This document shows, one piece after another, positions 2,777 through 19,371 of a DNA stretch of 44,580 nt (within the stretch, counting starts at the first letter, position 1; each line of letters begins with the position of its first letter). Both the position numbers and the translations under genes were made by a program. The stretch lies in the IMG/VR virus record IMGVR_UViG_3300037310_000278, positions 1-44,580 of that record. The stretch is one strand, 5' to 3'. Origin of the DNA: a virus. Taxonomy: Duplodnaviria > Caudoviricetes. The notes below the pieces were generated by a model. That model ran no database searches and had not been told where the DNA came from. It saw only the letters and a list, made by a program, of their open reading frames with translations.

Positions 2777-2782
2777 GCACGC

Positions 2783-2813
2783 CCTCTAGCACGGGCGCTA
2801 GGTGCTCAAGTTC
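2783..2813 (-). promoter_or_regulatory. Putative late promoter motif (GAACTTGAGCAC) upstream of terS
   Basis: Variant of a motif repeated before five late gene blocks. Confidence 0.55.
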
Positions 2814-3216
2814 ACTCGACGCGAAGGGTATGATTCCGACGCTCGAAGCCGATCAGCATGGCGACGTAGCGCGCCGTGACGCCGAAGCGTTGGGCCAGGC
2901 GCCGCGTTGTCCAGCGCCGACGGCCGTCGTCATCCAGCTCGCCGAGCTCGTACAGCGAGCGGATGACTTCAACCTCGTCGTCCGTAAGCCGAGCGCGTGG
3001 ATGATCCGCGTTGATCAGCCGTCCGGTCTCGTTCTGTTGGCGGGGCCTTGCGCCAGCGGAAAGCAGTCGGCCAATGTGTTGCCGGCTGACGCCGAACAGC
3101 GCTGCGATTTCGGCATGTGTGTGTTTGCGCCGTCCATCCGCCGTCCGGGCCGCCGCCAGCCCGCGCACCGTGGCGGCGTAGCTCTTTTTTGAAAATATCA
3201 AATTTCCGTTTGCCAT
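2812..3216 (-). CDS. Tandem helix-turn-helix DNA-binding protein, candidate late regulator
   Basis: Two HTH motifs: THAEIAALFGVSRQHIGRLL and TTRRLAQRFGVTARYVAMLI; ATG at 3216 is preferred over the longer AT-rich extension. Confidence 0.7.
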   Translation of the reverse strand: MANGNLIFSKKSYAATVRGLAAARTADGRRKHTHAEIAALFGVSRQHIGRLLSAGARPRQQNETGRLINADHPRARLTDDEVEVIRSLYELGELDDDGRRRWTTRRLAQRFGVTARYVAMLIGFERRNHTLRVE

Positions 3217-3285
3217 ATTTTGAATTTCCCCAAATTTCTGATTTTTCATTTTTTGGATTTTCCGAAAATCAGTAACCGTTTGGTG

Positions 3286-3644
3286 TCGGTGATACCTTTT
3301 TTTTTTCGGTGATACCTTTTGTGCTCGACAACCCATTGAAATCATTAGAGGCGTGATACATGCAAAAATCTTAAGTCGTTGATTTCAGGGCGTTGTGATA
3401 CATTCGGCTATTTTTGCTCAATTCCCCCTAGGAAAATGGGTTATCCACAGGTGTATTAGTGTAGTAATACACCGGGGCACTTAGGGCCCTGTTTTATGCT
3501 CCCCCTATTAATAGAGATATACGTAAAAAGGTATCACAACGCTTTAAAATCAATGGCTTCTGCATCACCGAATGTATCACCGTCTTACACGCCCCCAATA
3601 AAATCAATGGGTTCTCCATCACGCTTTTTTGCCGATTGTATCAC
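3286..3644. other. Candidate replication origin: inverted iteron arrays around an AT-rich core with a DnaA box
   Basis: GTGATAC at 3289, 3309, 3353, 3395; its complement GTATCAC at 3531, 3574, 3638; TTATCCACA at 3441-3449; located at the strand-divergence point. Confidence 0.6.
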
Positions 3645-3656
3645 GCAATTTTTCCC

Positions 3657-3743
3657 CAAATTTTCGGTTTTCCAAATTTTGGCTTTTTCAAATTTTCGGT
3701 TTTCCAAATTTTGGCTTTTTCAAATTTTCGGTTTTCCAAATTT
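3657..3743. repeat. 16-bp-period A/T-tract tandem repeat (alternating caaattttcggttttc and caaattttggcttttt), about 5.4 units
   Basis: Units start at 3657, 3673, 3689, 3705, 3721, 3737. Confidence 0.9.
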
Positions 3744-3779
3744 CCCTCCGAATTTTGAATTTCCCCAGAAACCTTTCGG

Positions 3780-3808
3780 TTGACACTCGATAACCGTTGG
3801 GTTACGGT
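3780..3808 (+). promoter_or_regulatory. Sigma70-type promoter with embedded operator
   Basis: TTGACA-N17-TACGGT; TAACCGTTGGGTTA at 3791-3804. Confidence 0.7.
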
Positions 3809-3847
3809 TTGCCCTCCCCTTCACTCTTTTTCGAAAAGGACGGCGCC

Positions 3848-4162
3848 ATGGTCTATCGCTTCAAACCAAACTGCGCGCAGCGCAATGTCTATATCCGGAA
3901 GATGCGGGCACTGGAAGCGTGGCTTGCCGGCGAAGGCCGTCCGCTGCATGCCGAAAGAGCGTCAACCGGAACGGTGTATTTTACAATCGGCGGGCAGCGA
4001 TATCGCGTTGCAAGACACGCCCCGGGGTTCAACGCCTCGGGTGACGTCATCAGCTTCCACGCCGCCCCGACACGCGCTCCCGAAATCGCCGCTGCGATCC
4101 TCGCCGGCAAACGTGTCGACCGCCGGGGCGCGGTGCGCGGCGAGCATGCACCCGGCGCTTGA
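3848..4162 (+). CDS. Hypothetical early protein
   Basis: AAAGGA RBS followed by ATG at 3848 (MVYRFKPNCAQ...), 104 aa. Confidence 0.7.
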   Translation: MVYRFKPNCAQRNVYIRKMRALEAWLAGEGRPLHAERASTGTVYFTIGGQRYRVARHAPGFNASGDVISFHAAPTRAPEIAAAILAGKRVDRRGAVRGEHAPGA

Positions 4163-4187
4163 CAATCGGTAACCAACCGGTTATATG
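4159..4187 (+). promoter_or_regulatory. Sigma70-type promoter with embedded operator
   Basis: TTGACA-N17-TATATG; TAACCAACCGGTTA at 4170-4183. Confidence 0.7.
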
Positions 4188-4197
4188 CTCTTTTGTT

Positions 4198-4227
4198 GAC
4201 GCTCTTTCAGGAAGGAACAACACCATG
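4198..4227 (+). repeat. 30-bp leader repeat, copy 1 (identical to 4646-4675)
   Basis: gacgctctttcaggaaggaacaacaccatg. Confidence 0.9.
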
Positions 4228-4635
4228 GCACGTTCAGTCAGCTACCCTCGCAACGCCGTCGTTGCGTTCGACAGTTTCGACCCCGACCCGGAATTCGGCT
4301 TTGAGGATTTCCAGTTGCTCGTCGAAGATTACTGCCACGCGCTCTCCAAGGCGTACCCGGCGGGTTCTCCCCGGGAAAAATGGCTTGGGCGGGAGGATCG
4401 CGTGGTGTTTGCCAACGCCCTGGTCTATTTCGGCATCAGCGAATACGGCGGCACCATCGCCTATTGGGCCGTCGTGCGTGACGACACCGACTACCCGGCG
4501 CTCGCGGAGAGCTATCTGAAACGTATTGCGCCGAATTTTGAGGCCAGGTTCGGCACGCTGCGCCGGCTTGGTGCCATGAGCAACGGCGAAGTCGTGTACG
4601 CGAGAATCGGCGGCGGCGGCGGTCTCGTGGCCTGA
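4225..4635 (+). CDS. Hypothetical early protein
   Basis: Strong RBS and ATG at 4225 (MARSVSYPRN...), 136 aa. Confidence 0.8.
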   Translation: MARSVSYPRNAVVAFDSFDPDPEFGFEDFQLLVEDYCHALSKAYPAGSPREKWLGREDRVVFANALVYFGISEYGGTIAYWAVVRDDTDYPALAESYLKRIAPNFEARFGTLRRLGAMSNGEVVYARIGGGGGLVA

Positions 4636-4645
4636 CGCCCCGCCC

Positions 4646-4675
4646 GACGCTCTTTCAGGAAGGAACAACACCATG
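4646..4675 (+). repeat. 30-bp leader repeat, copy 2
   Basis: Identical to 4198-4227. Confidence 0.9.
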
Positions 4676-5104
4676 TTCGGATCAAAATCAACCCCGGCGC
4701 CTGCACCCGCCAACCCGCAGATGGACAAGGCAGTGACTTGGTTCCGACGGCGTACGCTGTCGACCGCTGTCGACCACATAACGGCTATTGCCATTGTCAT
4801 GGACGCCGTTGCCCCCGGGGAGGGATGGAACACGGTCTACGACGTCGCTCTCGAGCTGACACACTACATGTACTCGAAGGACAGCCCAATGCCGCGCGTC
4901 ATTCAGCTTTATGAGGCACTGGAGAAGGCGCGCAAGGTGCCGCTGCCGCCGCTCGCCGAGGAAGCCGCACTCGTGCTCAACATGGCACTCGCCGCCGGCA
5001 TGAGCGGCGCCGGCCTGCCCGGCGCGATAGCCGCCAACGGGATCATGCAACAGGTCATGAAGGTTGGCATTGCCGTGCAGGATCAGCTCGCGAAACCTCG
5101 CTGA
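4673..5104 (+). CDS. Hypothetical helical protein
   Basis: 143-aa ORF following the repeated RBS leader. Confidence 0.75.
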   Translation: MFGSKSTPAPAPANPQMDKAVTWFRRRTLSTAVDHITAIAIVMDAVAPGEGWNTVYDVALELTHYMYSKDSPMPRVIQLYEALEKARKVPLPPLAEEAALVLNMALAAGMSGAGLPGAIAANGIMQQVMKVGIAVQDQLAKPR

Positions 5105-5123
5105 AATTGAAAGGCTGACGATC

Positions 5124-5822
5124 ATGTCGAAAGCAACACGAACCGCCGACCGCTACGCAACCCCGGAGCGCTGCGCTGAAGCCGTAGCGCAGGATGGGTG
5201 GCGCCTCTGGCACGTCCCGGAGCATTTCGTGACCCACGAGCTTTGCCGGGTTGCTGTAGCGCAGAACGGGTTGGCCTTGGGCGTTGTTCGAGAGCAGTTT
5301 CTCACACCTGAAATTTGCCTCGCGGCCGTAAAGCAGAACGGGAACGCTCTTGCCCATGTTCCCGATCATATTAAAACGGCCGAGATTTGTGCTGCTGCGG
5401 CAGCGCAAAATGGCTGGTCGGTGTGCTATGCCCCTGAGCGTTTCCAAACGGCCGAGCTCTGCACCCTCGCCGTAAAGCGAAACGGATTGGCAATACGTTG
5501 CATCCCCAACCATCTTGTGACAGCCGACCTGTGCGCTATCGCCGTTCAGGAAGATGCTATGGCGTTGTTTCTGGCGCCAGTGCGTTTCTGGACAGATGCT
5601 CTCGAGGCGCTGGTCGGCGAAGCCATAGCCTGTCACCACTACACGCTCTACCGTAGGCCGAACGGCCTGTACCAGGCTGGATGCCGCAAGCATCTGACGC
5701 TTGCGCAGGCGCTGGCGCATTGGGGTCCGCCACGAACCGATAAACGCGCGCAAGTTTTCCATGCCGCGCTGTTGGGGGAACAGCGAAGGCTGGCGGATCA
5801 AGACGCGGGCCAAGCGACATGA
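5124..5822 (+). CDS. DUF4116-like helical repeat protein
   Basis: Six ~25-aa repeats of the form T-E-C--AV-QNG-AL--VP; ATG at 5124. Confidence 0.8.
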   Translation: MSKATRTADRYATPERCAEAVAQDGWRLWHVPEHFVTHELCRVAVAQNGLALGVVREQFLTPEICLAAVKQNGNALAHVPDHIKTAEICAAAAAQNGWSVCYAPERFQTAELCTLAVKRNGLAIRCIPNHLVTADLCAIAVQEDAMALFLAPVRFWTDALEALVGEAIACHHYTLYRRPNGLYQAGCRKHLTLAQALAHWGPPRTDKRAQVFHAALLGEQRRLADQDAGQAT

Positions 5823-5836
5823 GGGTTCTTGTCCGT

Positions 5837-5895
5837 CCTTGACGTTGCTGTAGCCGCACGGTTATGTTTCATTTTTCAGGAGAACCACCATGACA
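5837..5895 (+). promoter_or_regulatory. Promoter-operator-RBS unit (near-duplicate of 7501-7558)
   Basis: TTGACG, TAGCCGCACGGTTA (5851-5864), TATGTT, then TTTCAGGAGAACCACCATG. Confidence 0.75.
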
Positions 5896-6945
5896 AAAGA
5901 TTTTACGCCCGAAATGGAAGCCGCGATCTCGGCTCATGTCGACAAATGGATCGGCATCGGCCTGTCGACCGAACGCGCCGACTTCGACGCGGCGGAAGCG
6001 GCAGCGCTGGCCTGCTATGACCTCATTGGCTGCCCACGCCCGGCCGTCGTGCTGCGCATGGGATCGCCGTTTGCCTGTGTGCTTGGCGGTGCCGTCGCGC
6101 ATGCCGTGCTTGAAGACATTGGGTATTTCGCCGAACGGCAGGTCGGGCCGCCGGTCGAGCATCAGGTCGAGCATCGGGTCGCGCAGCGGGTCGGGCAGCA
6201 GGTCTGGCGGCAGGTCGGGCCGCAGGTCTGGCAGCAGGTCTGGAAGCAGGTCGCGCAGCAGGTCGGGCAGCAACGTGTCGTGCAGCAGGTCGGGCAGCAA
6301 CGTGTCGTGCAGCAGATTTATGCGCAGATCGAAACAAAAATTGAACGGCGAATTAAACAATACATTCAAGATCAGTTCAAGAGTAAAGCCCGATGGAAAG
6401 TCGAGAATGAATTTCGGCTAAATGTTTTGCAAAAGGTCGGGGAACAGGTTGGGCGGCGGGTCGAGCATCGGGCCAAGTGGCAGACCTTCACGCGTGTCGT
6501 CCATCAGGTCGACCTGTTCAAGACTGTCGACCGGCACGAGCTGTCGAATGCTCACTATCGCGGCTCGCAGCTATGGGCTGCGTGGCATGCCTACGTATCG
6601 TTTCTCGTCGAGCAAGGCCTGCTTGAACCATCGCCCGCCGTGGAGGCGTGGCGGCTTGACGAGACGCTTGCAAAAACCAGCGGCTTTACCTGGTGGAGCC
6701 GCGACGTGCTGTCGATCAGCGACCGGCCCCTGTTCATCAAGCGCGATGCCGAAGGCAAGCTACACAGCGACACCGGCAACGCCATCGAATACCCGGACGG
6801 CTGGGGCATTGCCTGCTGGCATGGTGTGCAGATACCCGTGGAATGGGTTTCTGGTGCGCCGCCGGCGCCCGTGGACGCACTGGCTTTGGAAAACGTCGAC
6901 CAGCGCCGCGCGGCGATCGAGATTATCGGCTGGCGCGACGAGTGA
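5890..6945 (+). CDS. DUF6745-like protein with QV-x-Q low-complexity repeat
   Basis: C-terminal ISDRP...RDAEGKLHSDTGNAIEYPDGWGIACWHGV...ENVDQRRAAIEIIGW motif; QVGQ/QVWQ repeats including an exact 27-bp duplication at 6255-6308. Confidence 0.75.
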   Translation: MTKDFTPEMEAAISAHVDKWIGIGLSTERADFDAAEAAALACYDLIGCPRPAVVLRMGSPFACVLGGAVAHAVLEDIGYFAERQVGPPVEHQVEHRVAQRVGQQVWRQVGPQVWQQVWKQVAQQVGQQRVVQQVGQQRVVQQIYAQIETKIERRIKQYIQDQFKSKARWKVENEFRLNVLQKVGEQVGRRVEHRAKWQTFTRVVHQVDLFKTVDRHELSNAHYRGSQLWAAWHAYVSFLVEQGLLEPSPAVEAWRLDETLAKTSGFTWWSRDVLSISDRPLFIKRDAEGKLHSDTGNAIEYPDGWGIACWHGVQIPVEWVSGAPPAPVDALALENVDQRRAAIEIIGWRDE

Positions 6946-6987
6946 TGGGCCGGCAACCCGGACGGCGGCAACAGGATTGGAAGACCG

Positions 6988-7506
6988 ATGAAGTACAAGC
7001 TGACTGGCAAAACGCGCAAGTTTCGCGGCGTCAAGCTGTACCGCATTAAGGCGCTGCGCGACATTCCGCTGCACGGCGTCAAGGCTGGCGACCTTGGCGG
7101 TTGGGTCGAGGGCCTGCACAACCTTTCGCGAGCTGGCGACGCGTGGGTGTCCGGCAACGCCAAGGTCTATGACGCGGCTTTGGTGACCGCGACCGCTCGT
7201 GCTGGTGGCAATGCCATCGCCAGAGGCCACGCACGGATCACGGGCGGCGCCTTTGTTGGCGATCATGCCGTCGTCGAGGATCACGCCGTGATGAGCGGTT
7301 ACGCCTGGGCGGTTGGCAGGACCAGGATTGGCGGCCGGGTTCGCGTGTCCAAGACAGCCATCGTCAGTGGCCGTGCCGAGGCCGACGGCGACGCCACAAC
7401 CACCGGCGCTGCGTGGGTCGGCGGCCGCGCACGGATCAGCGGGCGCCAGAAGATTACTGGAGGTGCCTGGTCAACAGGTTGCTACGGCACTGTCTCCGGC
7501 CCTTGA
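6988..7506 (+). CDS. Hexapeptide-repeat (left-handed beta-helix-like) phage protein
   Basis: KYKLT...LYRIKALRD...GDLGGWVE...NLS followed by AWVSGNAKVYD-type hexapeptides. Confidence 0.8.
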   Translation: MKYKLTGKTRKFRGVKLYRIKALRDIPLHGVKAGDLGGWVEGLHNLSRAGDAWVSGNAKVYDAALVTATARAGGNAIARGHARITGGAFVGDHAVVEDHAVMSGYAWAVGRTRIGGRVRVSKTAIVSGRAEADGDATTTGAAWVGGRARISGRQKITGGAWSTGCYGTVSGP

Positions 7507-7558
7507 CGTTGCTGTAACCGCACGGTTATAGAGTGTTTTCAGGAGAACCACCATGACA
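7501..7558 (+). promoter_or_regulatory. Promoter-operator-RBS unit
   Basis: TTGACG, TAACCGCACGGTTA (7515-7528), TATAGA, TTTCAGGAGAACCACCATG. Confidence 0.75.
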
Positions 7559-7747
7559 TCACCACCCTTCTCTCTTACCCGCTGTGTCGACGAGGCGCGC
7601 ATCGACCAGGTCAACCTCGTCTGCGCGCGCCGCAGTGACGCCATGTTCGCTGCCATCGAGGCCCGCGAGGCCGCCAGGCGCGCTGGCAGGGCGCGTCCCT
7701 CCCGGCTCGCCTCCCGGATCAGCGCCTGGTTGGGGCGCGCGGCATGA
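7553..7747 (+). CDS. Small hypothetical protein
   Basis: Strong RBS, 64 aa, ATGA overlap with the next gene. Confidence 0.7.
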   Translation: MTSPPFSLTRCVDEARIDQVNLVCARRSDAMFAAIEAREAARRAGRARPSRLASRISAWLGRAA

Positions 7748-7965
7748 CCGGCAGGCAGCCTACCGGCATCGAGCGCGCTATTGTGGCAGCAGGCGGCACC
7801 GTTGCGCTGGCGACCCTGCTAGGCGTCACCAGCCCGGCCATCAGCAAGTTTCACGCGCAAGGATGGGTGCCGATCAGCCGCGCCCGCGCCATCCACGCCA
7901 TGTACCCGGACATTCCGCTCCGGGACCTGGTCAGGCCAGATATCGCCGACATCCTGCTGGTTTGA
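7744..7965 (+). CDS. Cro-like HTH regulator
   Basis: IERAIVAAGGTVALATLLGVTSPAISKF..GWVP..RA pattern, 73 aa, directly upstream of the primase. Confidence 0.8.
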   Translation: MTGRQPTGIERAIVAAGGTVALATLLGVTSPAISKFHAQGWVPISRARAIHAMYPDIPLRDLVRPDIADILLV

Positions 7966-7971
7966 CGCGCC

Positions 7972-10233
7972 ATGGACTTTGGCGCGTCCCCGGCCGTGTG
8001 GCAGCACTACGCCGGCGAGCTGGGTCTGTGTGAGGACCTGCTCCCCGTCGTGTCGAACCCGGATGCCAGGTTGAGCCCTGACAGCCGCATCAGCCGCCTT
8101 GGCAAGACCCCGACCCGCTACAACTACCGAGGCTTCGTCGCCGGCATCAGGAGCTGGGTCGACTTCCGCGCCGCGCCGCGCGACATCGGCGACTGGTCGG
8201 CGGTGCCCGACTACGGCATCTGCGTGCAGACCCGGCGCGTGCGCGCCTTCGACATCGACGTCGCCGACGTCGCCACGGCGCGGCGGATTGTCGCCGCCAT
8301 CGAGACCGCCACCGGCTTCCGCTTCCCGCGACGCTATCGCCGGGGCACCGGCAAGTGCCTGTTGCCGTTCCGCTACCCGCCGCCGCTGACCAAGCGCGTT
8401 ATCCCGGTCGACGGCGGCATGATCGAGGTGCTGGCGACCGGTCAACAGTTCGTCGCCGAGGGCACCTATATCGACGCCTCCGGCAAGGCTGCCGGGCGTT
8501 ACCTGTGGACCGACGGCCTCCCCGGCGCGCTGCCGGAGCTGTCCGAAGACCAGTTCAACGCGCTGTGGGTGGCGCTGGTGACCGAGTTCGCCACCGACGC
8601 GCCGCGCATTGCCCGCCAGCGCAAGGCCGTTTCCAAAGAGCGTGTACACGAGGCGCGCGGGCGCGACGATCAGGCCGACTATCTGATCGAGACCGCGACC
8701 ATCTACGACGTTGGTGAGGACGGCAGGCTCTATCTGGAATGCCCGTTCGCCAGCGAGCACAGCAGCGCAGGGCTGACCAGCACGGTCTATTTCCCGGCCA
8801 CGACGGGCGGCTACGCACAGGGCCACTGGGTTTGCCTGCACGCGCATTGCATGGACCGTGATGAAGCCGATTTCCGCGACGCCTGCGGCTACACGCTGGA
8901 CGGCTTCGAGGACCTGACCGAAGCGCCGCCGGAGCTGGCTCCGGTGCCGGCTGTCAGTCCCGAGGCGCGCGTCCTCCTCGACAAGGGGGCCACGCCCCTG
9001 CTGCTGCGCCCCCGCCGCAACAGCGAGCCGGCGCGCATCCTGCGCGACGCCAAGGGGCGGCCGGAAACCACCATGGACAATCTCATCGAAGCGCTGGAGA
9101 ACCCTGGCTTCTGCCAGCACGTGCTGGCCTTCGACGCCTTCCAGCATGATGTCGTCTGGTGCCCAATGACCGACCCGGAAGGCGAGGAGCAATGGGCGGC
9201 GTTCGACGACACCAACTACGCTGACCTACAGCGCATCCTCGAACGTCGGGGCTTCCGGCAGATCGGCATTGAGATGCTGCGTCGGGCGGTGCGCCGCGCG
9301 GCGCGCGACAACCCGGTCGACACCGCGCAGATATGGCTCATGCGCCAGCAATGGGACGGCGTTTCCCGCGTCTCCGGTTTCTTCGAGCAAGCCTTTGGCG
9401 TGCCGGCCAGCGACTACGCGACAGCGGTTTCCCGCTATCTGTGGACGGCGCTTGCTGGCCGCGTCATTGCGCCAGGCTGCAAGGCTGACATGGTCGTCAC
9501 GCTGGTTGGCCCACAGGGCCTCTACAAGAGCACGGCGCTCGAGCAACTGGTGCCGCACACCGACTTCTACTTGCAGGTCCACCTTAAGAACAAGGAGGAC
9601 GACATCGCGCGGCTCATGCGCGGGCGCATGGTCTACGACATCGACGAGCTACGCGGGCTGCGTTCGAAGTCGGCCGAGGAAATCAAGGCGTTTCTCAGCC
9701 GGCGCTACGACACCTGGGTGCCGAAATTCATGGAGACGACGACGCGCTTCGCCCGGCGCGGCGTGTTCGTCGCCTCGACCAACGAGGATGACTTCCTCGG
9801 CGACGCCACCGGCGAGCGGCGCTGGCTGCCGCTGTCGGTGAATCACGCCGATGTCAGGTGGATCGCCGCCAACCGCGATCAGCTATGGGCGGAAGCCGCC
9901 AACCTCTACGTCCTCGACGGCATCCTGTGGCAGGACGCCGAGCGGCTCGCTGTCGTCGAGCATCCACGCTACAAGGCCGAGGACGCCTGGGAGCTGATCA
10001 TCGCGCGCTGGCTGGAGGACCGCGACGTCACCGGTGAACGGACCAACGCCGACAATCCGGAAGGCTTGCACGCCAGCGAGGTCGCGGCCGGCGCCCTCGG
10101 CCTGTCGCTGCGCGATATGGATAACTCTGTGTACGGCCGGGTCGGCCGCGTGCTGCGGCGCTTCGGCTTCGTGCGCGGCCAGGGCCGCCGTCGCAACCGC
10201 TGGTTCCCGCGTAAGGAGGAAGCATCGTCATGA
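7972..10233 (+). CDS. Primase-polymerase fused to a VirE/VapE-type helicase
   Basis: N-terminal AFDIDV prim-pol motif, CPF..EH/C.HAHC zinc motif, Walker A GPQGLYKST, and FVASTNEDDFLGDATGERRWLP typical of the VirE family. Confidence 0.88.
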   Translation: MDFGASPAVWQHYAGELGLCEDLLPVVSNPDARLSPDSRISRLGKTPTRYNYRGFVAGIRSWVDFRAAPRDIGDWSAVPDYGICVQTRRVRAFDIDVADVATARRIVAAIETATGFRFPRRYRRGTGKCLLPFRYPPPLTKRVIPVDGGMIEVLATGQQFVAEGTYIDASGKAAGRYLWTDGLPGALPELSEDQFNALWVALVTEFATDAPRIARQRKAVSKERVHEARGRDDQADYLIETATIYDVGEDGRLYLECPFASEHSSAGLTSTVYFPATTGGYAQGHWVCLHAHCMDRDEADFRDACGYTLDGFEDLTEAPPELAPVPAVSPEARVLLDKGATPLLLRPRRNSEPARILRDAKGRPETTMDNLIEALENPGFCQHVLAFDAFQHDVVWCPMTDPEGEEQWAAFDDTNYADLQRILERRGFRQIGIEMLRRAVRRAARDNPVDTAQIWLMRQQWDGVSRVSGFFEQAFGVPASDYATAVSRYLWTALAGRVIAPGCKADMVVTLVGPQGLYKSTALEQLVPHTDFYLQVHLKNKEDDIARLMRGRMVYDIDELRGLRSKSAEEIKAFLSRRYDTWVPKFMETTTRFARRGVFVASTNEDDFLGDATGERRWLPLSVNHADVRWIAANRDQLWAEAANLYVLDGILWQDAERLAVVEHPRYKAEDAWELIIARWLEDRDVTGERTNADNPEGLHASEVAAGALGLSLRDMDNSVYGRVGRVLRRFGFVRGQGRRRNRWFPRKEEASS

Positions 10234-10297
10234 CTCGCACCCGCCGGTTTCCGTTCGCGCCTGTGGACATGGTTGCAAAGAATCGGTATACCCAAGC

Positions 10298-10490
10298 ACA
10301 GGCAACAGCGCGTCGCCGGCCGGACTGGAAACGCACTGTTGTTCGCGTACCCTCGCGGGAAGGCCCGTGCGGGGTGGCGCACCTCCTTTCCTCCGGGAAG
10401 GCTCCACACGTTCCGGGCAAGGAATGTCGTGCGGAGCAAGGGGATTCGAAACGGCGGTTGCTCATGAAAATGGGTCAACCGCCGTTTTCA
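10298..10490 (+). ncRNA. Candidate structured small RNA 1
   Basis: TGGACA-N17-TATACC promoter at 10264-10292, four consecutive hairpins, ACCTCCT at 10381, and a closing long GAAA-loop hairpin with TTTT. Confidence 0.45.
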
Positions 10491-10504
10491 GTCAGGATAC
10501 CACT

Positions 10505-10678
10505 ATGACCCGCATCAGTCAGCGGGCGCACCGCTACACGCTGACCTGCCGTAGCCCGGCCGGAAAACAGGTCCTCGAAGTGTACACGTCCGGCGAGCCT
10601 GCCGTGTTCCACGCCCGCGCCCGCGTCGGCGAAGGCTGCACCGACGTTGTCATCCGCGTCGAACCCATATTGACATGA
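10505..10678 (+). CDS. Small hypothetical protein (57 aa)
   Basis: CAGGA RBS and ATG at 10505 (MTRISQRAHRYTLTC...). Confidence 0.55.
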   Translation: MTRISQRAHRYTLTCRSPAGKQVLEVYTSGEPAVFHARARVGEGCTDVVIRVEPILT

Positions 10679-10704
10679 CGAAGGCTTTGGGCTATTTGGC
10701 CTTC

Positions 10705-10844
10705 CGTTCTCCTGAAAGAACAGGCGGTTCCGGTGTCGACCTACCTCGGAGCCGCCTACAGGAGGACGCTTGGCTATGCTGTTCGTTTCGTGTGGAGCTA
10801 AACGAACAACTTGAAGGCGCCCTGCTTCGGGCGCCTTTTTTTTT
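10705..10844 (+). ncRNA. Candidate structured small RNA 2 with anti-RBS 5' end
   Basis: TTGACA-N17-TATTTG promoter at 10670-10698, nested stems, intrinsic terminator; 5' GTTCTCCTGAAA is complementary to phage RBS motifs. Confidence 0.55.
10814..10844 (+). terminator. Rho-independent terminator
   Basis: aaggcgccc-tgcttc-gggcgcctt followed by a T run. Confidence 0.9.
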
Positions 10845-10864
10845 GCCAAAATCCAAAAACCATA

Positions 10865-10893
10865 TTGACGGCCCGTTACCTGTCAGTTACATA
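10865..10893 (+). promoter_or_regulatory. Promoter of the replication operon with a degenerate operator
   Basis: TTGACG-N17-TACATA; TTACCTGTCAGTTA at 10876-10889. Confidence 0.6.
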
Positions 10894-10936
10894 ACCCGTG
10901 ACGCGCTGGCATGGCGCGCCGATCAGGAGAACAACG

Positions 10937-11395
10937 ATGAATTTCACGATTACGGTTGACATTCCGGCGCTCGACCGGCTTTCAGCGGCGATACTGGCGC
11001 TCGCCGGCAGCGTAAGCGGCGCACAGGATGCCCCGGGCGGGCAGCCGGCTCCGGCCAAACCGAAGGCCGAGAAGCCAGCAAAGACCCCGCCAGCGGCCAA
11101 GCCTGAACCGGACGCCAAGCCTGAACCGGACGCCAAGCCTGAACCGGACGCCAAGCCTGAACCGGACGCCAAGCCTGAACCGGACGCCAAGCCTGAACCG
11201 ACGGCCGAACCCGCCGACGCGTCCGGGCCAAGCGATATCGATTTGCGCACGGCCGCCATCAACTACGCGCAGAAGAACGGCAAGGAAGCGCTCATCGCAC
11301 TGCTTGAGCGCGAAGCCGGCGTACGCAACGTGTCGGGGATCGCAGCGGCGAAGCGCGGTGACGTGTACACGGCGCTGTTGGGGAAGGCCGGCTGA
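10937..11395 (+). CDS. Hypothetical protein with an AKPEPD repeat linker, at the usual position upstream of the DUF2800 gene
   Basis: CAGGAG RBS, ATG at 10937, 152 aa; N-terminal LDRLSAAILALA and a small helical C-terminal domain. Confidence 0.8.
   Translation: MNFTITVDIPALDRLSAAILALAGSVSGAQDAPGGQPAPAKPKAEKPAKTPPAAKPEPDAKPEPDAKPEPDAKPEPDAKPEPDAKPEPTAEPADASGPSDIDLRTAAINYAQKNGKEALIALLEREAGVRNVSGIAAAKRGDVYTALLGKAG
11096..11200 (+). repeat. Perfect 18-bp tandem repeat gccaagcctgaaccggac, about 5.8 copies
   Basis: Seen directly. Confidence 0.95.
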
Positions 11396-11577
11396 TGTTG
11401 GGTCTGCCGAACATTCACTCGCAGAGCATCTTCGCCATTGCGAAGCAGGCGCACGTCGACCTCTATCAGTTGGCGTACCGCGTCGCCGAGAACGAGGACG
11501 TACCCGACCCGCTGCGCGAAACCGCGAAGGCATTGATCGAACGCATCAAGCAGCAGGCCCTGGGGCCGGCGGCTTGA
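11395..11577 (+). CDS. Small hypothetical protein
   Basis: 60 aa, TGATG coupling with the upstream gene. Confidence 0.65.
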   Translation: MLGLPNIHSQSIFAIAKQAHVDLYQLAYRVAENEDVPDPLRETAKALIERIKQQALGPAA

Positions 11578-11644
11578 TCGGGAGGCGTCGATTTCGACCC
11601 CTTTCCGACGCCTTCCGCCTTTTCATTTTCAGGAGAACAGCATC

Positions 11645-12961
11645 ATGACGACAGAGGGCAAACGGCACGCTTTGCTTGGGCCGAGCGGCGCGCAGCGCTG
11701 GTCGACCTGCGCGGCATCCAGCGTCTACCATGACGGCGTGCATTCACCGTCGTCGAAATACAGTCTTTGGGGCGTTGCCGCGCATGCGGTTCTTGAAATG
11801 TGTTTCGCGGACCCTGCGCGCCCGGCCAACGCCGAAGCCTTTGTCGGCCACATCGCCGAGGCCGAAGGCAATGAAATCACCGTCGACATGGAAATGGCCG
11901 ATTGCGTCAACACCTGTGTCGAACATATCGAAGCGCTGACGGCGACGGCCACGTACCGCGTTTTTGAAACCGAGGTCGGCATCGAGCACATCACCGGCGA
12001 GACCGGCGCCGTCGGGACGGCCGACCATATCGCCATCGTGCCGCTGGCCAACGGCGGCGACGAGCTGGTTGTCGTCGATTTCAAGGCCGGCGCCGGAGTG
12101 CTTGTCGAGGCCGAAGGCAACCTGCAACTAGCCATGTACGCGCTTGGCGCGCTCAACACCCTGGATGTCGTCTACGATATCCGGAGCGTGCGTCTCGTCA
12201 TCGTGCAGCCGCGCATGCACAACACCGGCGAATGGGTGCTGCCGGTCGACGCGCTGCGGCAGTTGGAAACCAAATTGCAGCACGCCGCGAAGCGGTCGCT
12301 GGAGCTGGTCGTCGAAACGCGCCAGCACGGCACTTTGCCAGCGGCCGAGCACTACCAACCTTCCGAGAAGGCTTGCCGGTTCTGCGTGGCGAAGGCGTCC
12401 TGCCCGGCGCTGCGCGGCTTTGTGCTCGACGCCGTCACCATGGGCGCCGCCAGCGCGGAGGACTTCGCAAACCTGGTTGAGGAGAAAGGCTCGCTGCCAA
12501 AGGCGCTGTCGGCAACGGTCAACACCGGCGCTGACATCAGCGACGCCGACCTCGGCCAGGCCATGTCCTGCACCGGCCTTGTCGAGACCTGGATCAAGGC
12601 GATCCGGGCCGAGGTGGAAAGCCGGCTGCTTGACGGCCGCGCCGTCCCTGGCTGGAAGCTGGTTGCCGGCCGGCGCGGTGCGCGTCGCTGGACCGACACC
12701 GAGGCGGCCGCCAAGGCGCTGACCACCTCCGGCCGGTTGAAAACCAGCGAAGCCTATGTGTCGGAGCTGATCTCGCCGACCGTTGCCGAGAAGCTGCTTG
12801 CCGACCGACCGCGCGTCTGGGCCAAGCTTGAACCGCTGATCACGTGCAGCGAGGGCCGGCCAAGCGTGGCGCCTTCGTCCAGCTCAAGACCGGCCTGGAC
12901 GCCGATTTCCGCAACCGACTTCGACGCGGTGGAGGACAGCGCCGCGTCCGAGACTGACTGA
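11645..12961 (+). CDS. DUF2800-type PD-(D/E)xK Cas4-like exonuclease
   Basis: HALLGPSGAQRWSTC, GTADHI, VVDFKAG, NLQLAMYALG, CRFC..K..CPA. Confidence 0.85.
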   Translation: MTTEGKRHALLGPSGAQRWSTCAASSVYHDGVHSPSSKYSLWGVAAHAVLEMCFADPARPANAEAFVGHIAEAEGNEITVDMEMADCVNTCVEHIEALTATATYRVFETEVGIEHITGETGAVGTADHIAIVPLANGGDELVVVDFKAGAGVLVEAEGNLQLAMYALGALNTLDVVYDIRSVRLVIVQPRMHNTGEWVLPVDALRQLETKLQHAAKRSLELVVETRQHGTLPAAEHYQPSEKACRFCVAKASCPALRGFVLDAVTMGAASAEDFANLVEEKGSLPKALSATVNTGADISDADLGQAMSCTGLVETWIKAIRAEVESRLLDGRAVPGWKLVAGRRGARRWTDTEAAAKALTTSGRLKTSEAYVSELISPTVAEKLLADRPRVWAKLEPLITCSEGRPSVAPSSSSRPAWTPISATDFDAVEDSAASETD

Positions 12962-12982
12962 CTGTCCTGACAGGAGACATCC

Positions 12983-13534
12983 ATGGCTACCGTTATGCTC
13001 AAAGACGTTCGACTTGCCTTCCACCGGGGGCTGTTCAACGCGATTGCTTTCGCCGGCGACGGCAAGGCGGACTACAATTGCAAATTCATTTTTCCGCCGG
13101 ATCATCCGGCGACCGAGCTGATCGAAGCCGCCGAGGCCGAGGTCGCCAAGGAGAAATGGGGCGCCAAATGGGGGAAGGAGCTTGCCATCATCCGCAGTAC
13201 CGGCAATGCCGTTGTCCACGATGGCAACCTCCAGCGTGCTGACGGTTTCGAGGGCAACCGCTACATTAATGTGAGGTCGCAAATCCGCCCCGGCGTTTTC
13301 AACCGGGACCGTTCGCCGCTGACCGAAGCCGACGGCGTCATCTATTCAGGGTGTTTTGTCAACGCCAAGATCGAGGTTTGGGCGATGGACAACCAGTACG
13401 GCAAGAAGATCAACGCCCAATTGCTTGGCGTGCAGTTCGCCCGCGACGGCGACAGCTTCGGCGGCGGCAAGCCGTCGGCGACCGCCGACGATTTCGAGGA
13501 CGTTGCCGATAACGGCGAAGACCCGTTCGCCTGA
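12983..13534 (+). CDS. DUF2815-type single-stranded DNA-binding protein
   Basis: VRLAF, IYSGCFVNA, LLGVQFARDGDSFGGG and an acidic C-terminus ending DPFA. Confidence 0.85.
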   Translation: MATVMLKDVRLAFHRGLFNAIAFAGDGKADYNCKFIFPPDHPATELIEAAEAEVAKEKWGAKWGKELAIIRSTGNAVVHDGNLQRADGFEGNRYINVRSQIRPGVFNRDRSPLTEADGVIYSGCFVNAKIEVWAMDNQYGKKINAQLLGVQFARDGDSFGGGKPSATADDFEDVADNGEDPFA

Positions 13535-13593
13535 GCCGGGCGCCGCTGGCAGACCGGCCATTGTCTGCCTTTTGCTTTTTCAGGAGAAGAGGC

Positions 13594-13770
13594 ATGGTCG
13601 ACATCGATATGCGCGTCACGGGGCCCGAAGCCGAAAAGGTTGTCGATTACATATTCGAAGCCCTCGGCAAGTCAGGCTTCGAGCATTACATCGTCGCTTC
13701 CATTTTCCGGGGGCTAAGCAACGGCGAAGAAGACTTCTGCGACTATCGCACGGCGCTTCATGTTCGCTAG
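13594..13770 (+). CDS. Small hypothetical protein (58 aa)
   Basis: TTTCAGGAGAAG RBS and ATG at 13594; overlaps the polymerase start. Confidence 0.65.
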   Translation: MVDIDMRVTGPEAEKVVDYIFEALGKSGFEHYIVASIFRGLSNGEEDFCDYRTALHVR

Positions 13771-15742
13771 GACGCTCTATCTCGATATCGAGACCTACTG
13801 CGAGACGCCGATAGCCGTTGGCACGCACCGCTACGCCGAGGACGCCGAGATCACGGTGCTGGCGTGGGCGCACGACGGCGGCGAGGTGCGCGTGCAGGAC
13901 ATGACCCGTGATAGCACGCTGCCGAGCGATTTGCTCGTGGCGCTCGCCGACGGCGGTACCGAGGTCGTCATGCACAACAGCGCCTTCGACCGCACCGTGC
14001 TGCGACACGCCTACGGCCTCGACATCCCGGTATGGCGTGTCACCGACACCATGGTGCAGGCGCTCGCGCACGGCCTGCCGGGCGGTCTCGACAAGCTCTG
14101 CGACGTATTCAAAGTTCCGGCCGAATTTCGCAAGCTCGACACTGGGCGCGACCTCGTCATGCTGTTCTGCAAGCCCCGGCCAAAGGGCCACAAGCTGCGG
14201 CGTGCGAATCGTGATTCACACCCGGAGCGCTGGCAGGAGTTTCTAGAATACGCCAAGGGCGACATCCGTTCCATGCGTTGGCTGCGCACGCGCTTGCCGT
14301 CGGTCAACTATCCGACGAATTTCGTCGAGCGCGACGTCTGGTGCCTCGACCAGGCCACCAACGACCGGGGTTTCGCCGTCGACGTGGAGCTGGCCGGGAA
14401 AGCTGTCCAGCTCATTGACACCACCAAGCAAGACCTTTCCGGCCGGCTCATGGAGCTGACCTGGGGCGAGGTCGAAACCGCCGGGCAGCGCGACCGCCTG
14501 CTGGGGCACCTGCTGTCCACGTTTGGCGTGTCGCTGCCAGACCTGACGGCGTCGACCCTGGAGCGCCGCGTCAACGACGAGAACCTGCCCGAACCCGTCC
14601 GGGAGATTCTCGCCATCCGGCTGGCGGCATCGGGCTCGTCGACGAGCAAGTACCAGGCTCTGCTGCGCGGCGTCTCCTCCGACGGCCGGTTGCGCGGCAC
14701 GATCCAGTACTGCGGCGCGTCGCGCACCGGTCGCGACGCCGGCCGCCTGTTCCAGCCGCAGAACCTGCCAAGGACACCCGACAGCTTCGACGCCGCTGAA
14801 CAGGAAGCCGCCATCGCGGCGATCAAGGGCGGCGTCGCCGACGTGGTCTACGACTCGCCGCTGTCCGTCGCCTCGCACTGCCTGCGCGGCGCCATTGTCG
14901 CCAGCCCCGGCCGCAAGCTGGTTGTCGCCGACCTGTCCAACATCGAGGGCCGGGTGCTGGCCTGGTTGGCCGGCGAAACGACCAAGCTGGCGGCGTTCCG
15001 GGCCTACGACGCCGGCACCGGGCCGGACGTGTACACGGCCACGGCGGCCATGGTGCTGAACAAGCCGGTCAAGGATATCACCAAGGCCGAACGGCAGACC
15101 AGCGGCAAGGTGCCGGAGCTGGCCTGCGGCTATCAGGGCGGTTCCGGGGCCTTCTCGTCGATGATGCAGCTCTACGGCCTCGACCTGACGCCTGGCGAGG
15201 TCGACAGCATCGTGCGCGGCTGGCGCGCCGCCAACCGCCGTATCGTAGCCCTCTGGTACGACGTGGAGAGGGCCGCCAGAAGCGCGATAGCGACGCCGGG
15301 GGTAAAGATACCCGTGAACTCCCTCATTACGCTTGTGCGGGCCGGAGACTGGCTCCGGATACGCCTGCCGTCGGGGCGTCAGCTCTTCTACATGTCGCCC
15401 CGGCTTGGCGACCGGCGGGAAGGCGGTGCGCTCAGCTATTACGGCGTCAACAGCTACACCCGCCGCTGGGAGCGCATCGAGACCTACGGCGGCAAGCTGG
15501 TGGAAAACATAACCCAGGCCGTCGCGCGCGACGTGCTCAAGCATAACGCGCTGCTTGCCGAAGCGGCAGGCTATCAAATCCTGCTGCCCGTGCATGATGA
15601 GCTGATCACTGAAACCGAGGACCTTCCCAAGTTCACGGCGGCTGGGCTGTGCGAGCGGCTGAGTGCCTTGCCGGACTGGGCCGACGCGTCGCTGCCGCTG
15701 GCCTCGCACGGTTTTGAAACCTACCGCTACCGGAAAGACTGA
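13760..15742 (+). CDS. Family A DNA polymerase with 3'-5' exonuclease
   Basis: LDIET and HNSAFDR exonuclease motifs; SRTGR, ADLSNIEGR (motif A), R...K..ELACGYQGG (motif B), VHDE (motif C). Confidence 0.92.
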   Translation: MFARTLYLDIETYCETPIAVGTHRYAEDAEITVLAWAHDGGEVRVQDMTRDSTLPSDLLVALADGGTEVVMHNSAFDRTVLRHAYGLDIPVWRVTDTMVQALAHGLPGGLDKLCDVFKVPAEFRKLDTGRDLVMLFCKPRPKGHKLRRANRDSHPERWQEFLEYAKGDIRSMRWLRTRLPSVNYPTNFVERDVWCLDQATNDRGFAVDVELAGKAVQLIDTTKQDLSGRLMELTWGEVETAGQRDRLLGHLLSTFGVSLPDLTASTLERRVNDENLPEPVREILAIRLAASGSSTSKYQALLRGVSSDGRLRGTIQYCGASRTGRDAGRLFQPQNLPRTPDSFDAAEQEAAIAAIKGGVADVVYDSPLSVASHCLRGAIVASPGRKLVVADLSNIEGRVLAWLAGETTKLAAFRAYDAGTGPDVYTATAAMVLNKPVKDITKAERQTSGKVPELACGYQGGSGAFSSMMQLYGLDLTPGEVDSIVRGWRAANRRIVALWYDVERAARSAIATPGVKIPVNSLITLVRAGDWLRIRLPSGRQLFYMSPRLGDRREGGALSYYGVNSYTRRWERIETYGGKLVENITQAVARDVLKHNALLAEAAGYQILLPVHDELITETEDLPKFTAAGLCERLSALPDWADASLPLASHGFETYRYRKD

Positions 15743-15746
15743 CAGC

Positions 15747-16031
15747 GTGCGGACGTTGCGGGAAGCCGATATCGAAGCCTATTTCTGCGCGATGGTCGCC
15801 CGTGCCGGCGGCGAGCAGCGCAAGGTACGCTGGACCGGCCGGCGCGGCTGCCCGGATCGCTTTGTCTGGTGGCCTGGCACCAGCCGCCCGCCGGCGTTCG
15901 TCGAGTTCAAGGCACCGGGTGGGGCGGCGCGCGCCGAGCAGGCGAGGGAGCATGACTTGCTGCGCGCCGGCGGTGTCGCGGTGTTGGTGCTGGACACGCG
16001 CGCCGGCGTTGACGACTACATAGGCGCCTGA
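15747..16031 (+). CDS. VRR-NUC domain nuclease
   Basis: READIE...GCPDR...FVEFKAPGG...Q; GTG start at 15747. Confidence 0.85.
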   Translation: MRTLREADIEAYFCAMVARAGGEQRKVRWTGRRGCPDRFVWWPGTSRPPAFVEFKAPGGAARAEQAREHDLLRAGGVAVLVLDTRAGVDDYIGA

Positions 16032-17401
16032 TGATACCGAAATACCGGCCATGGCAGGAACCAATGGGCGCGCACCTGGCGCGCTGGAACCGCTGCGCGC
16101 TGTTTGCCGGCATGGGCTCCGGCAAGACGCTCGTCACCCTCGACCTGCTGTCGCTGGGCGGCCAGCTCGACGAGGCCCCGGCGCTAGTCATCGCACCGAA
16201 GCGGGTGGCGCAAACGGTCTGGCCGCAGGAGGTCGGCAAATGGCCGCACCTGCGCGGGCTCAAGGTCGAGTGCGTGGTCGGCAGCGAGAGCCAGCGGCTC
16301 GCAGCCCTGTCGCGGCGGGCCGACGTGTACTCGGTCAACTATGACGTGTTGCCGTGGCTGGTCATGCACTACGGCGCGAAGTGGCCGTTCCGTACCATCA
16401 TCGCCGACGAACTCACCCGCTTGCGATCGTACCGCGCCCGGCAGGGCGGCAGGCGGGCGGCAGCGCTGGCCCGCGTTGCGCACACGCCGACGGTGCGCAC
16501 CTTCGTCGGCCTTACCGGAACGCCGACGCCGAACGGCATCCTGAGCCTGTGGGGGCAGATGTGGTTCGTCGACCGGGGCGAGCGCCTCGGCCGGACGTTC
16601 TCGGCGTTCGCGCAGCGCTGGTTCTACCCGGATCAGAGCGGCTATGGCCTAGTGCCGGTGCCGGGGGCGCAGGAGGAAATACAGGAGCGGATCAGGGATA
16701 TCTGTCTGTCGGTCAACCCGCGCGACTACATGGGCATTCCGGAGCCGATCGTCACCGACATCCGTGTCGAGCTGCCGGCTTCGGCCCGCAAGGTCTACCG
16801 GGAAATGGAGCGCAGGCTTTGGGCCGAGCTGTCCGACGGCACGATGCTGGAGGCCGTGCACGCGGCGGCGCGCTCGATCAAGTGCCTGCAAATCGCCAAC
16901 GGTACCGTGTACACGGACGAGGAAAGGTCTGTCTGGCAGGCCCTGCACGGCGCCAAGATCGAAGCGCTGGAAAGCATCGTCGAGGAAGCCAACGGCATGC
17001 CGGTGCTCGTCGCCTATCAATTCCGCCACGACCTGGCGCGGCTGCTGAAAGCCTTTCCCGGCAGCGTCGATTTCGGCAGCACGCCGGACGCCGAGGCGCG
17101 CTGGAACGCCGGGCAAATTCCCGTCATGTTCGTCCATCCGGCCAGCGCCGGCCACGGCTGCAACCTGCAATGGGGCGGCAATATCCTGGCGTTCTACGGG
17201 CACTGGTGGAACACCGAGGAACGCGAGCAGGTTATCGAACGCATCGGTCCGGTGCGCCAGTTCCAGGCGGAGCTGCACCGACCGGTCTTCATCTACAACA
17301 TCGTCGCCGACAAGACCGTCGACGACATTGTGCTCAGGCGTCACGCCACGCGGCGGGACGTGCAGGAGCTACTCATCGAAACCTTGAAAGGAACCGTCTG
17401 A
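16031..17401 (+). CDS. SNF2-family helicase
   Basis: MGSGKT, IIADE, LTGTP, SAGHGCNLQ, QVIERIG..RQ. Confidence 0.9.
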   Translation: MIPKYRPWQEPMGAHLARWNRCALFAGMGSGKTLVTLDLLSLGGQLDEAPALVIAPKRVAQTVWPQEVGKWPHLRGLKVECVVGSESQRLAALSRRADVYSVNYDVLPWLVMHYGAKWPFRTIIADELTRLRSYRARQGGRRAAALARVAHTPTVRTFVGLTGTPTPNGILSLWGQMWFVDRGERLGRTFSAFAQRWFYPDQSGYGLVPVPGAQEEIQERIRDICLSVNPRDYMGIPEPIVTDIRVELPASARKVYREMERRLWAELSDGTMLEAVHAAARSIKCLQIANGTVYTDEERSVWQALHGAKIEALESIVEEANGMPVLVAYQFRHDLARLLKAFPGSVDFGSTPDAEARWNAGQIPVMFVHPASAGHGCNLQWGGNILAFYGHWWNTEEREQVIERIGPVRQFQAELHRPVFIYNIVADKTVDDIVLRRHATRRDVQELLIETLKGTV

Positions 17402-17402
17402 C

Positions 17403-17687
17403 ATGAACACCGAACACATTATCAGCAAACGCCAGAACACGCACGGTTCTTACGCCGTGTCCGCGAACATGGCTGACGCGATCACGCTGACAATCGAGAA
17501 GAGCCCCAATTGGTCAAGCATGCCGGCGGGGGTACGCAACGCGTTTCGCATGATCGCCGTCAAGCTGGCGCGTGCCGCGTGCGGAAACTGGAAAGAGAAA
17601 GACCACTACGCGGATATCAGCGGCTACGCGGTCCTGGCGCTCCGCTCCTTGCCCGCAGAACCGGGCGTTGACACTCCGGAGAGCTAA
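17403..17687 (+). CDS. DUF6378-like protein
   Basis: RQNTHGSY...MIAVKLAR...DHYADISGYAVL. Confidence 0.7.
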   Translation: MNTEHIISKRQNTHGSYAVSANMADAITLTIEKSPNWSSMPAGVRNAFRMIAVKLARAACGNWKEKDHYADISGYAVLALRSLPAEPGVDTPES

Positions 17688-17992
17688 GGCTGTCGCGGCG
17701 CCGGACAGTCGAAAGGCAACGCGCCGCCAGCGTCGACAATCCACCGACAGAGGCGTGCCCCGGCGGCGCTGAGGCGCTGACCCCACAGCTCGATTTCAAT
17801 GTCGTAAAGCGCGGCGGCTTGCTCGCTGGTCACGATATCAGCAGGAGCCACCGGCTTGGGTTCAACGAGCGCTTTAACGTCCGCCGCAGCCGGGAATATC
17901 GGCTGTATCCGTTCCTTGCTCGCGCAGGCGCTGACAGCCAAGGCGAACGCGAACAGCACTAGGTACCGTGTCGGGAGTTTCGGAGACTGCAT
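17684..17992 (-). CDS. Outer-membrane spanin lipoprotein (Rz1-like)
   Basis: ATG at 17992, signal peptide with lipobox LAVSA-C, proline-rich, overlaps the i-spanin 3' end. Confidence 0.65.
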   Translation of the reverse strand: MQSPKLPTRYLVLFAFALAVSACASKERIQPIFPAAADVKALVEPKPVAPADIVTSEQAAALYDIEIELWGQRLSAAGARLCRWIVDAGGALPFDCPAPRQP

Positions 17993-18254
17993 CGATAAGC
18001 CTTTCTTTGGTCGCGGCTTCTTCCACCATGTCGGCGACACGGTCGAGACTCGCCCGCTCGTCGGCATTGCTTTTCGTTTCGAGGGCGGCGGCGTTCGCCA
18101 GTGCACGGGCGGCGTCGGCCCGTGCGCGCTCCTTGGCGGCGCCTTGCCATAGGCCGATCACGATGCCGAGCGCGAAGCCGACACCAAACCCGGCGAGCGA
18201 CGGCCACCAGTTTCGCAGAAACGCCGTGGCACCGGCTACGAAGGGAAGTACCAT
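17874..18254 (-). CDS. Inner-membrane spanin (Rz-like)
   Basis: N-terminal TM helix, Ala-rich coiled coil, C-terminal Cys residues, downstream of the endolysin. Confidence 0.7.
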   Translation of the reverse strand: MVLPFVAGATAFLRNWWPSLAGFGVGFALGIVIGLWQGAAKERARADAARALANAAALETKSNADERASLDRVADMVEEAATKERLIDAVSETPDTVPSAVRVRLGCQRLREQGTDTADIPGCGGR

Positions 18255-18255
18255 G

Positions 18256-19327: not shown

Positions 19328-19371
19328 CTCGCTTTTTTCCTTTTTACTGAACACAATGCGACCCTCCGGCG

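Follow-up and report, generated by a model that had tools for sequence, protein, structure and literature searches.

The nearest tested mechanism to the one considered here is that of the c4 antisense RNA of phages P1 and P7 (Rfam RF01695), reported to block the RBS region of an antirepressor mRNA in prophage immunity (PMC12197685) and tabulated in PMC2864571. In Cluster K mycobacteriophages, Pope et al. (2011) described the SAS repeats, one inverted copy of which occurs in four phages (PMC3203893). The portions of that paper used here allow either an RNA or a protein as the SAS ligand, name no small RNA and do not use the word "antisense"; in papers of 2024 and 2025 the role of SAS is still called unknown or unverified (PMC11373665, PMC12699233). 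In T4, as given in PMC3014915, the endoribonuclease RegB attacks an extended GGAG motif in the SD regions of early, not late, mRNAs.

The end of early phage expression is known mostly through protein mechanisms of this kind, RegB and repressors. The sRNAs cuckoo/alpha-r14 and AbcR display pyrimidine anti-SD stretches in hairpin loops, with repeated CCUCCUCCC or CUCCCA loops, and have many targets. A literature search over titles and abstract openings, covering few subscription papers, returned no phage RNA antisense to an RBS motif common to many of the phage's own genes.

We analysed the virus record IMGVR_UViG_3300037310_000278 over its whole length of 44,580 nt (the window); its phage is called W. 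We describe in it a putative non-coding sRNA. Its 5' seed is complementary to an extended RBS motif, private to the phage, of seven early and replication genes, and the RNA probably blocks ribosome loading in trans.

W is a podophage of the BPP-1/APSE type with 63% GC. Its early and replication genes run rightward (DUF4116, DUF6745, Cro-like, Prim-Pol/VapE primase, DUF2800 exonuclease, SSB, PolA, SNF2 helicase) and its structural genes leftward. The gene labels of the original prediction, made from the sequence alone, all stand, the products concerned being DUF6745, Cro/YdaS-like, Prim-Pol/VapE primase and DUF2800. The closest cultured relatives share 40-49% protein identity with W, and relatives from Caulobacter and Brevundimonas only suggest an alphaproteobacterial host; a -10 element without its last T, which we take to be an alphaproteobacterial trait, is a second hint. 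Neither a tyrosine integrase nor an S24-type CI was found in three complete records. The first and last ~190 bases of the W record repeat, and a long GGCGTT/GGTGTC hexamer repeat at 1-90 and 44290-44480 encodes the Thr-Pro tract of a 638-aa leftward ORF crossing the record ends. The AT-rich non-coding stretch 3200-3780, with repeated TTTTCCAAATTTT and GTGATAC/GTATCAC motifs, adjoins the terminase genes and is probably an origin or packaging region.

The features of the RNA unit and its surroundings are the following:

7744-7965, + strand: Cro/YdaS-like protein (Pfam match below the curated cut-off, E 3e-7)
10670-10698, + strand: putative promoter of sigma-70 type (TTGACA-17-TATTTG) that lacks the phage operator
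10706-10844, + strand: predicted ~140-nt small RNA, probable start 10704-10706 (fold; variant homology)
10706-10717, + strand: seed, exact reverse complement of TTTCAGGAGAAC
10706-10721, + strand: 5' hairpin GUUCU/AGAAC, predicted to form in the nascent RNA (prefix folds)
10715-10721, + strand: unpaired bulge in the full-length fold (MFE), predicted toehold
10722-10757, + strand: 12-bp stem with a variable apical region (fold; variants at 10728, 10746 and 10756 keep pairs)
10759-10768, + strand: internal RBS-like decoy CAGGAGGACG, pairing in cis with the seed (fold)
10776-10814, + strand: 12-codon mini-ORF, unconserved and judged non-functional (G10778A in 2/2 variant contigs)
10780-10808, + strand: third hairpin (fold; variants)
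10813-10844, + strand: intrinsic terminator, hairpin 10813-10838 plus U-tract (terminator scan)
10865-10893, + strand: next promoter, with an operator-like site at 10876-10889, driving the Ala/Pro-rich gene and the exonuclease operon

Direct reading confirmed the promoter-like site proposed originally, TTGACA at 10670-10675 and TATTTG at 10693-10698 separated by 17 nt; the program scan did not list it because its -10 element has no T at position 6. The operator TAACC-N4-GGTTA is absent from it, as had been claimed, and lies inside the W promoters at 3780, 4159, 5839, 7503 and, with two mismatches, 10865. The Cro/YdaS-like protein is the likely binder of the operators at 3791, 4170, 5851 and 7515. 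The fold was also borne out: 10705-10850 reaches -71.8 kcal/mol (z -6.45, equalled by 0/200 shuffles) with all three stems named at the outset, and the terminator, then described as strong, ranks top among 20 terminator-like sites of W 1-20000.

The unit is single-copy in W, and a nucleotide search for homologues among GenBank phages gave no match. The Rfam search suggested alongside the original prediction brought no family to its cut-off for the W unit; a match to Phe_leader reaches 31.5 bits against a gathering threshold of 55 and is due to the hairpin and terminator.

Close variants were sought in four runs that cover parts of the region, all of them DNA and none recorded as RNA, by alignment to W 10640-10900; run X2 provided three contigs and X3 one, and X4 had no contig over the unit. 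Record 3 of X2 is 83% identical to W, with 21 substitutions and 3 gaps, and its homology is confined to 10702-10842; upstream, GAC at -35 and TTATC at -10 lie in register and the spacer is wholly changed. Variant changes were compared with the fold by hand, six end-near differences per contig not being in the tool's listing. Changes at seven stem positions (10728, 10746, 10756, 10763, 10791, 10797, 10800) keep their pairs, which is moderate support since transitions often preserve pairs by chance. One pair is broken (10804), one is replaced through a register shift, and the others fall in loops or linkers. In the decoy, A10763G retains a U-G pair. In record 4 of X2 (151 nt, depth 2) the 5' loop is altered and does not match the motif, and a small hairpin with UCUCC in its loop stands where W has the decoy; the record may be an error and, if real, argues against a fixed seed.

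As originally read, the seed GTTCTCCTGAAA (10706-10717) is complementary to the RBS motif TTTCAGGAGAAC over its whole 12 nt. The motif is exact at 5874, 7537 and 11627 on the + strand, also as stated then, and at 10706 on the - strand; the three + strand copies place GGAG 7-9 nt from a start codon. Weaker sites lie at 13578 (one mismatch), 10921 (two mismatches, 10-nt exact at 10923) and 44121 (- strand, two mismatches). The exact 12-mer is expected 0.002 times in the W genome; at up to two mismatches there are 7 matches against a shuffle mean of 2.0, and 7 is reached by 2/100 shuffles. Two target leaders had gone unnoticed, those of the genes at 4225 and 4673, each with a 10-nt match.

We calculated net binding for W gene starts as the duplex energy plus the opening cost, using a home-made procedure. 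The predicted value is negative at 7/17 rightward gene starts (-1.2 to -5.7 kcal/mol) and at 0/15 leftward (late) ones. The seven predicted targets are (net binding in kcal/mol):

4202-4218, + strand: leader of gene 4225-4635; duplex -18.9, net -3.8
4650-4666, + strand: leader of gene 4673-5104, a duplicate of the 4225 leader; net -3.7
5874-5885, + strand: RBS of the DUF6745 gene; 12-nt exact match, net -5.7
7537-7548, + strand: RBS of the first gene of the cro/primase operon; 12-nt exact match, net -5.2
10923-10932, + strand: RBS of the Ala/Pro-rich gene directly downstream of the unit; 10-nt exact match, net -2.4
11627-11638, + strand: RBS of the DUF2800 exonuclease; 12-nt exact match, net -4.1
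13578-13588, + strand: RBS of the gene preceding DNA polymerase; 11-nt exact match, net -1.2

Promoter/RBS cassettes are duplicated ahead of unrelated genes (5839-5895 resembles 7503-7558, and 4197-4227 resembles 4645-4675), so that the seven targets amount to about five independent sites. In the Ala/Pro-rich gene, an 18-nt tandem repeat at 11098-11200 (KPEPDA) varies among the variant contigs; the annotation of BPP-1 has a variable repeat in a gene at a similar place.

In the full-length fold the W seed is fully paired (p unpaired 0.00). Prefix folds form the 5' hairpin first; once 10759-10768 is made, the seed pairs with the decoy, an arrangement better by 9.9 kcal/mol that takes 11.5 kcal/mol to open. 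Because it is buried in this way, the seed would have to act via strand displacement or after unmasking. The unpaired AAAGA bulge is complementary to the U-run preceding the motif, giving 12-14 contiguous pairs with a target. Without the decoy, the predicted net binding of the seven targets would be -8.8 to -13.2 kcal/mol.

Around 240 loci were gathered with exonuclease and polymerase queries. Five related podophages, with exonucleases 37-45% identical to that of W, have a unit of promoter, anti-SD hairpin and terminator at the same locus: G001 (L002:467), G002 (L003:9149), G003 (L004:8815), L556 (at 4360) and G005 (L617). In four of them the unit immediately precedes the Ala/Pro-rich gene that lies before the exonuclease gene; in G005 it is displaced one gene upstream. 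All five were first spotted by eye, those of L556 and G005 by inspecting the predicted place. The anti-SD core follows the -35 element at 39-43 nt in all six phages; G002, G003 and G005 have poorly matching -10 elements. The RNAs of the relatives are shorter (53-71 nt) and carry the anti-SD core in the loop of the 5' hairpin (CUCC unpaired with a probability of 0.63-0.99 in 5/5), whereas in W an internal imperfect decoy hides the seed. Individually, their 5' hairpins are unremarkable (24-148 of 500 shuffles); the combined p is 0.017.

We rejected a leftward RBS as the meaning of the inverted motif: in all six phages the opposite strand has no ORF-opening start codon within the range of an RBS, the nearest lying 15-32 nt away.

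Each relative's seed is different and mirrors the RBS motif of its own phage, weakly so in G002:

G003: seed TTCTCCGGTTGG, RBS motif CCAACCGGAGAA
G005: seed CGTTCTCCAG, RBS motif CTGGAGAACG
L556: seed TTCTCCAGAT, RBS motif ATCTGGAGAA
G001: seed GTCCTCCTGA, RBS motif TCAGGAGGAC
G002: seed CCTCTCCGG, RBS motif CCGGAGAGG

Co-variation of seed and RBS motif had been named as a check of the original prediction. We ran it on the six phages, scoring the 30-nt seed region against 37-115 candidate RBS windows per record, a permissive list with false ORFs among them. Of 720 permutations, the true pairing scores best. Collapsing near-identical windows removed almost none, so that cassette duplicates still count in the matrix. 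G005 and L556 share a motif class and G002 and G003 likewise, which leaves about four independent classes; with one phage per class, the true pairing is the best of 24 permutations. This co-variation supports the trans-antisense reading put forward at the outset. Core-fixed shuffles reach the own-genome score in 0/500 cases each for W, G003, G005 and L556, in 4/500 for G001 and in 12/500 for G002. The two bases that the seed predicts 5' of GGAGA (CA, CC, CC, CT, CT) are the commonest in the own RBS windows of all five phages using GGAGA; G001 uses GGAGG instead. Against its own RBS set the W seed reaches a score of 57, and against 188 other loci no more than 44. The G002 seed reaches 40 on its own set and 43 on that of W, equal to the best unrelated loci.

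A blind scan covered 258 family and 268 unrelated loci and collected 133 units, L002 and L451 being one record; the controls were chance-match loci from five DNA-pattern scans of viral and metagenome contigs (blastn/nhmmer). Six of the top seven rows are units described here, the remaining row being a control scoring 52. Non-cis units with a score of at least 43 number 7/65 in the family versus 1/43 in the controls. A strict unit scan missed the units of W and L003 (overlap with spurious ORFs), and other scans those of L556 (an A-rich gap before the U-tract) and G003. The promoter/seed regions of the six phages aligned too poorly in MAFFT to support a covariance model.

In the polymerase tree, W, G002, G003 and G005 form one clade (support 1.0) with G001 outside; L556 is not among the tips of that clade, having possibly been lost or merged in dereplication. 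The polymerases nearest to that of W in the protein database are those of G003 (first) and G002 (fourth). No unit was found at this locus in Jess A, BL94, SR18, BPP-1, BcepC6B, Xfas53, L376, L382 or L569; L502 and L006, which do not contain the locus, were left out of this count. In all four operator-bearing phages (W, G002, G003 and L556), the RNA promoter is free of the TAACC-N4-GGTTA-type operator carried by its neighbours. The operator itself is kept in promoter spacers of W (3791, 4170, 5851, 7515, 10876), L003, L004 and L556 with polymerases only ~55% identical. Judged by sequence comparison, the unit is real, non-random and conserved as a family.

The seed could instead act mainly in cis: on read-through RNA it would pair with the next RBS or with the decoy and couple termination to translation of the downstream replication operon, as an attenuator does. 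The W seed does pair in cis in the fold, and the directly downstream gene carries the motif in W, G002, G003, G005 and L556; in G005, the terminator is followed by the RBS without a new promoter, and in L575 and L572 a similar hairpin with a weak terminator heads the SSB leader. In W, G001, G002, G003 and L556, however, a strong terminator and a new promoter lie between the unit and the gene that follows. The motif copies that match best are on other transcripts, including the other strand in G003 and G005; a seed acting in cis would not require them. We regard a mainly cis-acting seed as rather unlikely.

The RNA proposed here and c4 are both phage-encoded, have a specificity that differs between relatives, and act in trans to block an RBS of the phage's own mRNA, here by prediction and for c4 as described in PMC12197685. 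Exposure of the complementary stretch in a loop, as in c4, occurs in 5/5 relatives, and in W only in the nascent fold. The differences are that c4 controls one antirepressor mRNA, whereas one seed here matches 5-7 early-region gene starts, and that the RNA here is a simple hairpin with an intrinsic terminator. The c4 model RF01695 has no match at gathering in W; it is absent among the 12 Rfam matches at E<=10 around the W unit, and gave none in L002, L004 and L556. No antirepressor was seen among the 50 W ORFs scanned, the targets being the seven early and replication genes. Our best reading is a c4-like logic that is multi-target and operates in a phage in which no integrase or CI was found.

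Another reading is that the RNA does pair with these RBS motifs but serves mainly to exclude incoming kin phages or to give carrier-state immunity in the manner of c4, or that its anti-SD core directs it chiefly at host mRNAs. At least four classes of seed and motif have arisen, a diversification also known from immunity determinants (compare the heteroimmunity of P1 and P7 given in PMC12197685), and the unit occupies the interval of a CI-type gene in BPP-1, BcepC6B and L569. Against this reading stand the result on integrase and CI in the three complete records and the seed bases outside the SD core, which agree with the phage's own motif rather than with a generic SD. Such a main function seems unlikely to us.

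There is also a small chance that the motif works as a site in the DNA or came about through the duplication of cassettes, the inverted copy being a relic or protein site without RNA function, or that the W copy is locked by its decoy. Two pairs of targets are indeed duplicated cassettes, and the W seed is buried. Yet six phages whose motifs differ all have an inverted copy at one and the same locus, placed 39-43 nt after TTGAC, within a hairpin loop and ahead of a terminator, and close variants keep structure and promoter register.

Least credible is the peptide alternative. The original prediction let the seed hide GGAGG from use by a 12-aa peptide; on this view the unit would be the mRNA of a 12-14-aa peptide whose SD is masked by the 5' end in the manner of type I toxin mRNAs. 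GGAGG at 10761 does pair with the 5' end in the fold and an ATG (10776) and in-frame TTG (10770) are present, but the reading of a 12-aa peptide fails because ATG becomes ATA in both variant contigs covering the codon, X2 record 3 also has a weakened SD, a frameshift and no stop, and the units of the five relatives (53-71 nt) hold no comparable SD and ORF. Type I toxin or leader-peptide mRNA was rejected as an identity, the variants having no conserved small ORF behind a sequestered SD.

Under the trans-antisense reading, which we prefer, the RNA would pair with the early mRNAs, block 30S loading and turn the early programme down as a group. The Cro-like protein would close the operator promoters; as the RNA promoter is the one early promoter free of the operator, the RNA would stay on during this shutdown and silence the mRNAs already made. 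In W, a target leader might invade from the unpaired AAAGA bulge, used as a toehold, and displace the decoy. The decoy would thus set a threshold: binding to an ordinary SD would be cancelled, and only the phage's own motif would pass. From the sequence we infer that the unit is transcribed and that the outcome is repression rather than another; timing at the early-to-late switch is suggested by the operators and the identity of the targets only.

T4 RegB, as presented in PMC3014915, likewise shuts off early translation through an extended SD motif, which for W is a proposal; the difference is between a protein nuclease and, here, a likely RNA reader acting by base pairing. If this is true, the same switch would be thrown by RNA, through one molecule that reads an RBS common to the genes and private to the phage. 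Compared with the cuckoo/alpha-r14 and AbcR sRNAs, the phage units gave no Rfam match and have no repeated CCUCCUCCC or CUCCCA loops; the phage RNA presents a single loop, and its complementarity reaches phage-private bases that change with the phage.

With SAS, as it is characterised in PMC3203893, PMC11373665 and PMC12699233, W shares three traits. Non-structural genes are preceded, at 3-9 nt from their starts, by copies of an asymmetric extended RBS; a single copy faces the other way and belongs to no gene start; and a subset has upstream promoters that contain inverted repeats. The W motif differs from the 13-bp SAS consensus beyond AGGAG, and W is BPP-1/APSE-like, not Cluster K; in its arrangement the W motif is an SAS analogue, not a member. 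In mycobacteriophage Anaya we counted 16 direct and 1 inverted SAS in 32.8 kb. The inverted copy (L621:31871-31883, record 59870-59882) maps to the coding strand between gp96 and gp97, is predicted to lie in a hairpin loop and is a candidate anti-SAS RNA in a cultured phage.

More tentatively, many phages may carry a private extended RBS code on their early regulon together with one small RNA reader as an RNA-only master switch, the two co-diversifying. W would add a decoy, yielding a toehold-gated reader that tells phage from host RBSs, and the same scheme could explain the Cluster K SAS. If true, it would give a testable answer for repeats unexplained in cultured mycobacteriophages since 2011. 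The six natural seed/RBS pairs are a ready orthogonal set for reporter tests and synthetic translational control.

Similar units were seen at other places. In L575 (11131-11250) and, after the exonuclease, in L572, a strong TTGACA-17-TAAACT promoter, a CUCUCCGG hairpin and a weak terminator stand ahead of the SSB gene; these contigs belong to MAGs labelled Methylococcaceae and carry the same device at a different locus. In L575 seven early genes use CCGGAGA (score 47, 1/500 shuffles). L382 has a promoter, a UCUCUCCC hairpin and a strong terminator after the helicase (17814-17925); its own RBS windows carry GGGAGAG, and the score of 37, highest at home, is not significant alone. Units of ~57 nt with a promoter, a CCUCCC stretch and a terminator occur at L612:15977-16068 (the cultured Caulobacter phage RW) and L004:5019-5110; their seeds are unlike the main RBS motif of the phage, and they are possible anti-SD RNAs with host or single targets. 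In Xylella phage Xfas53 (L010:6500-7535), repeated structured leaders precede three antirepressor genes and contain stretches complementary to their RBSs.
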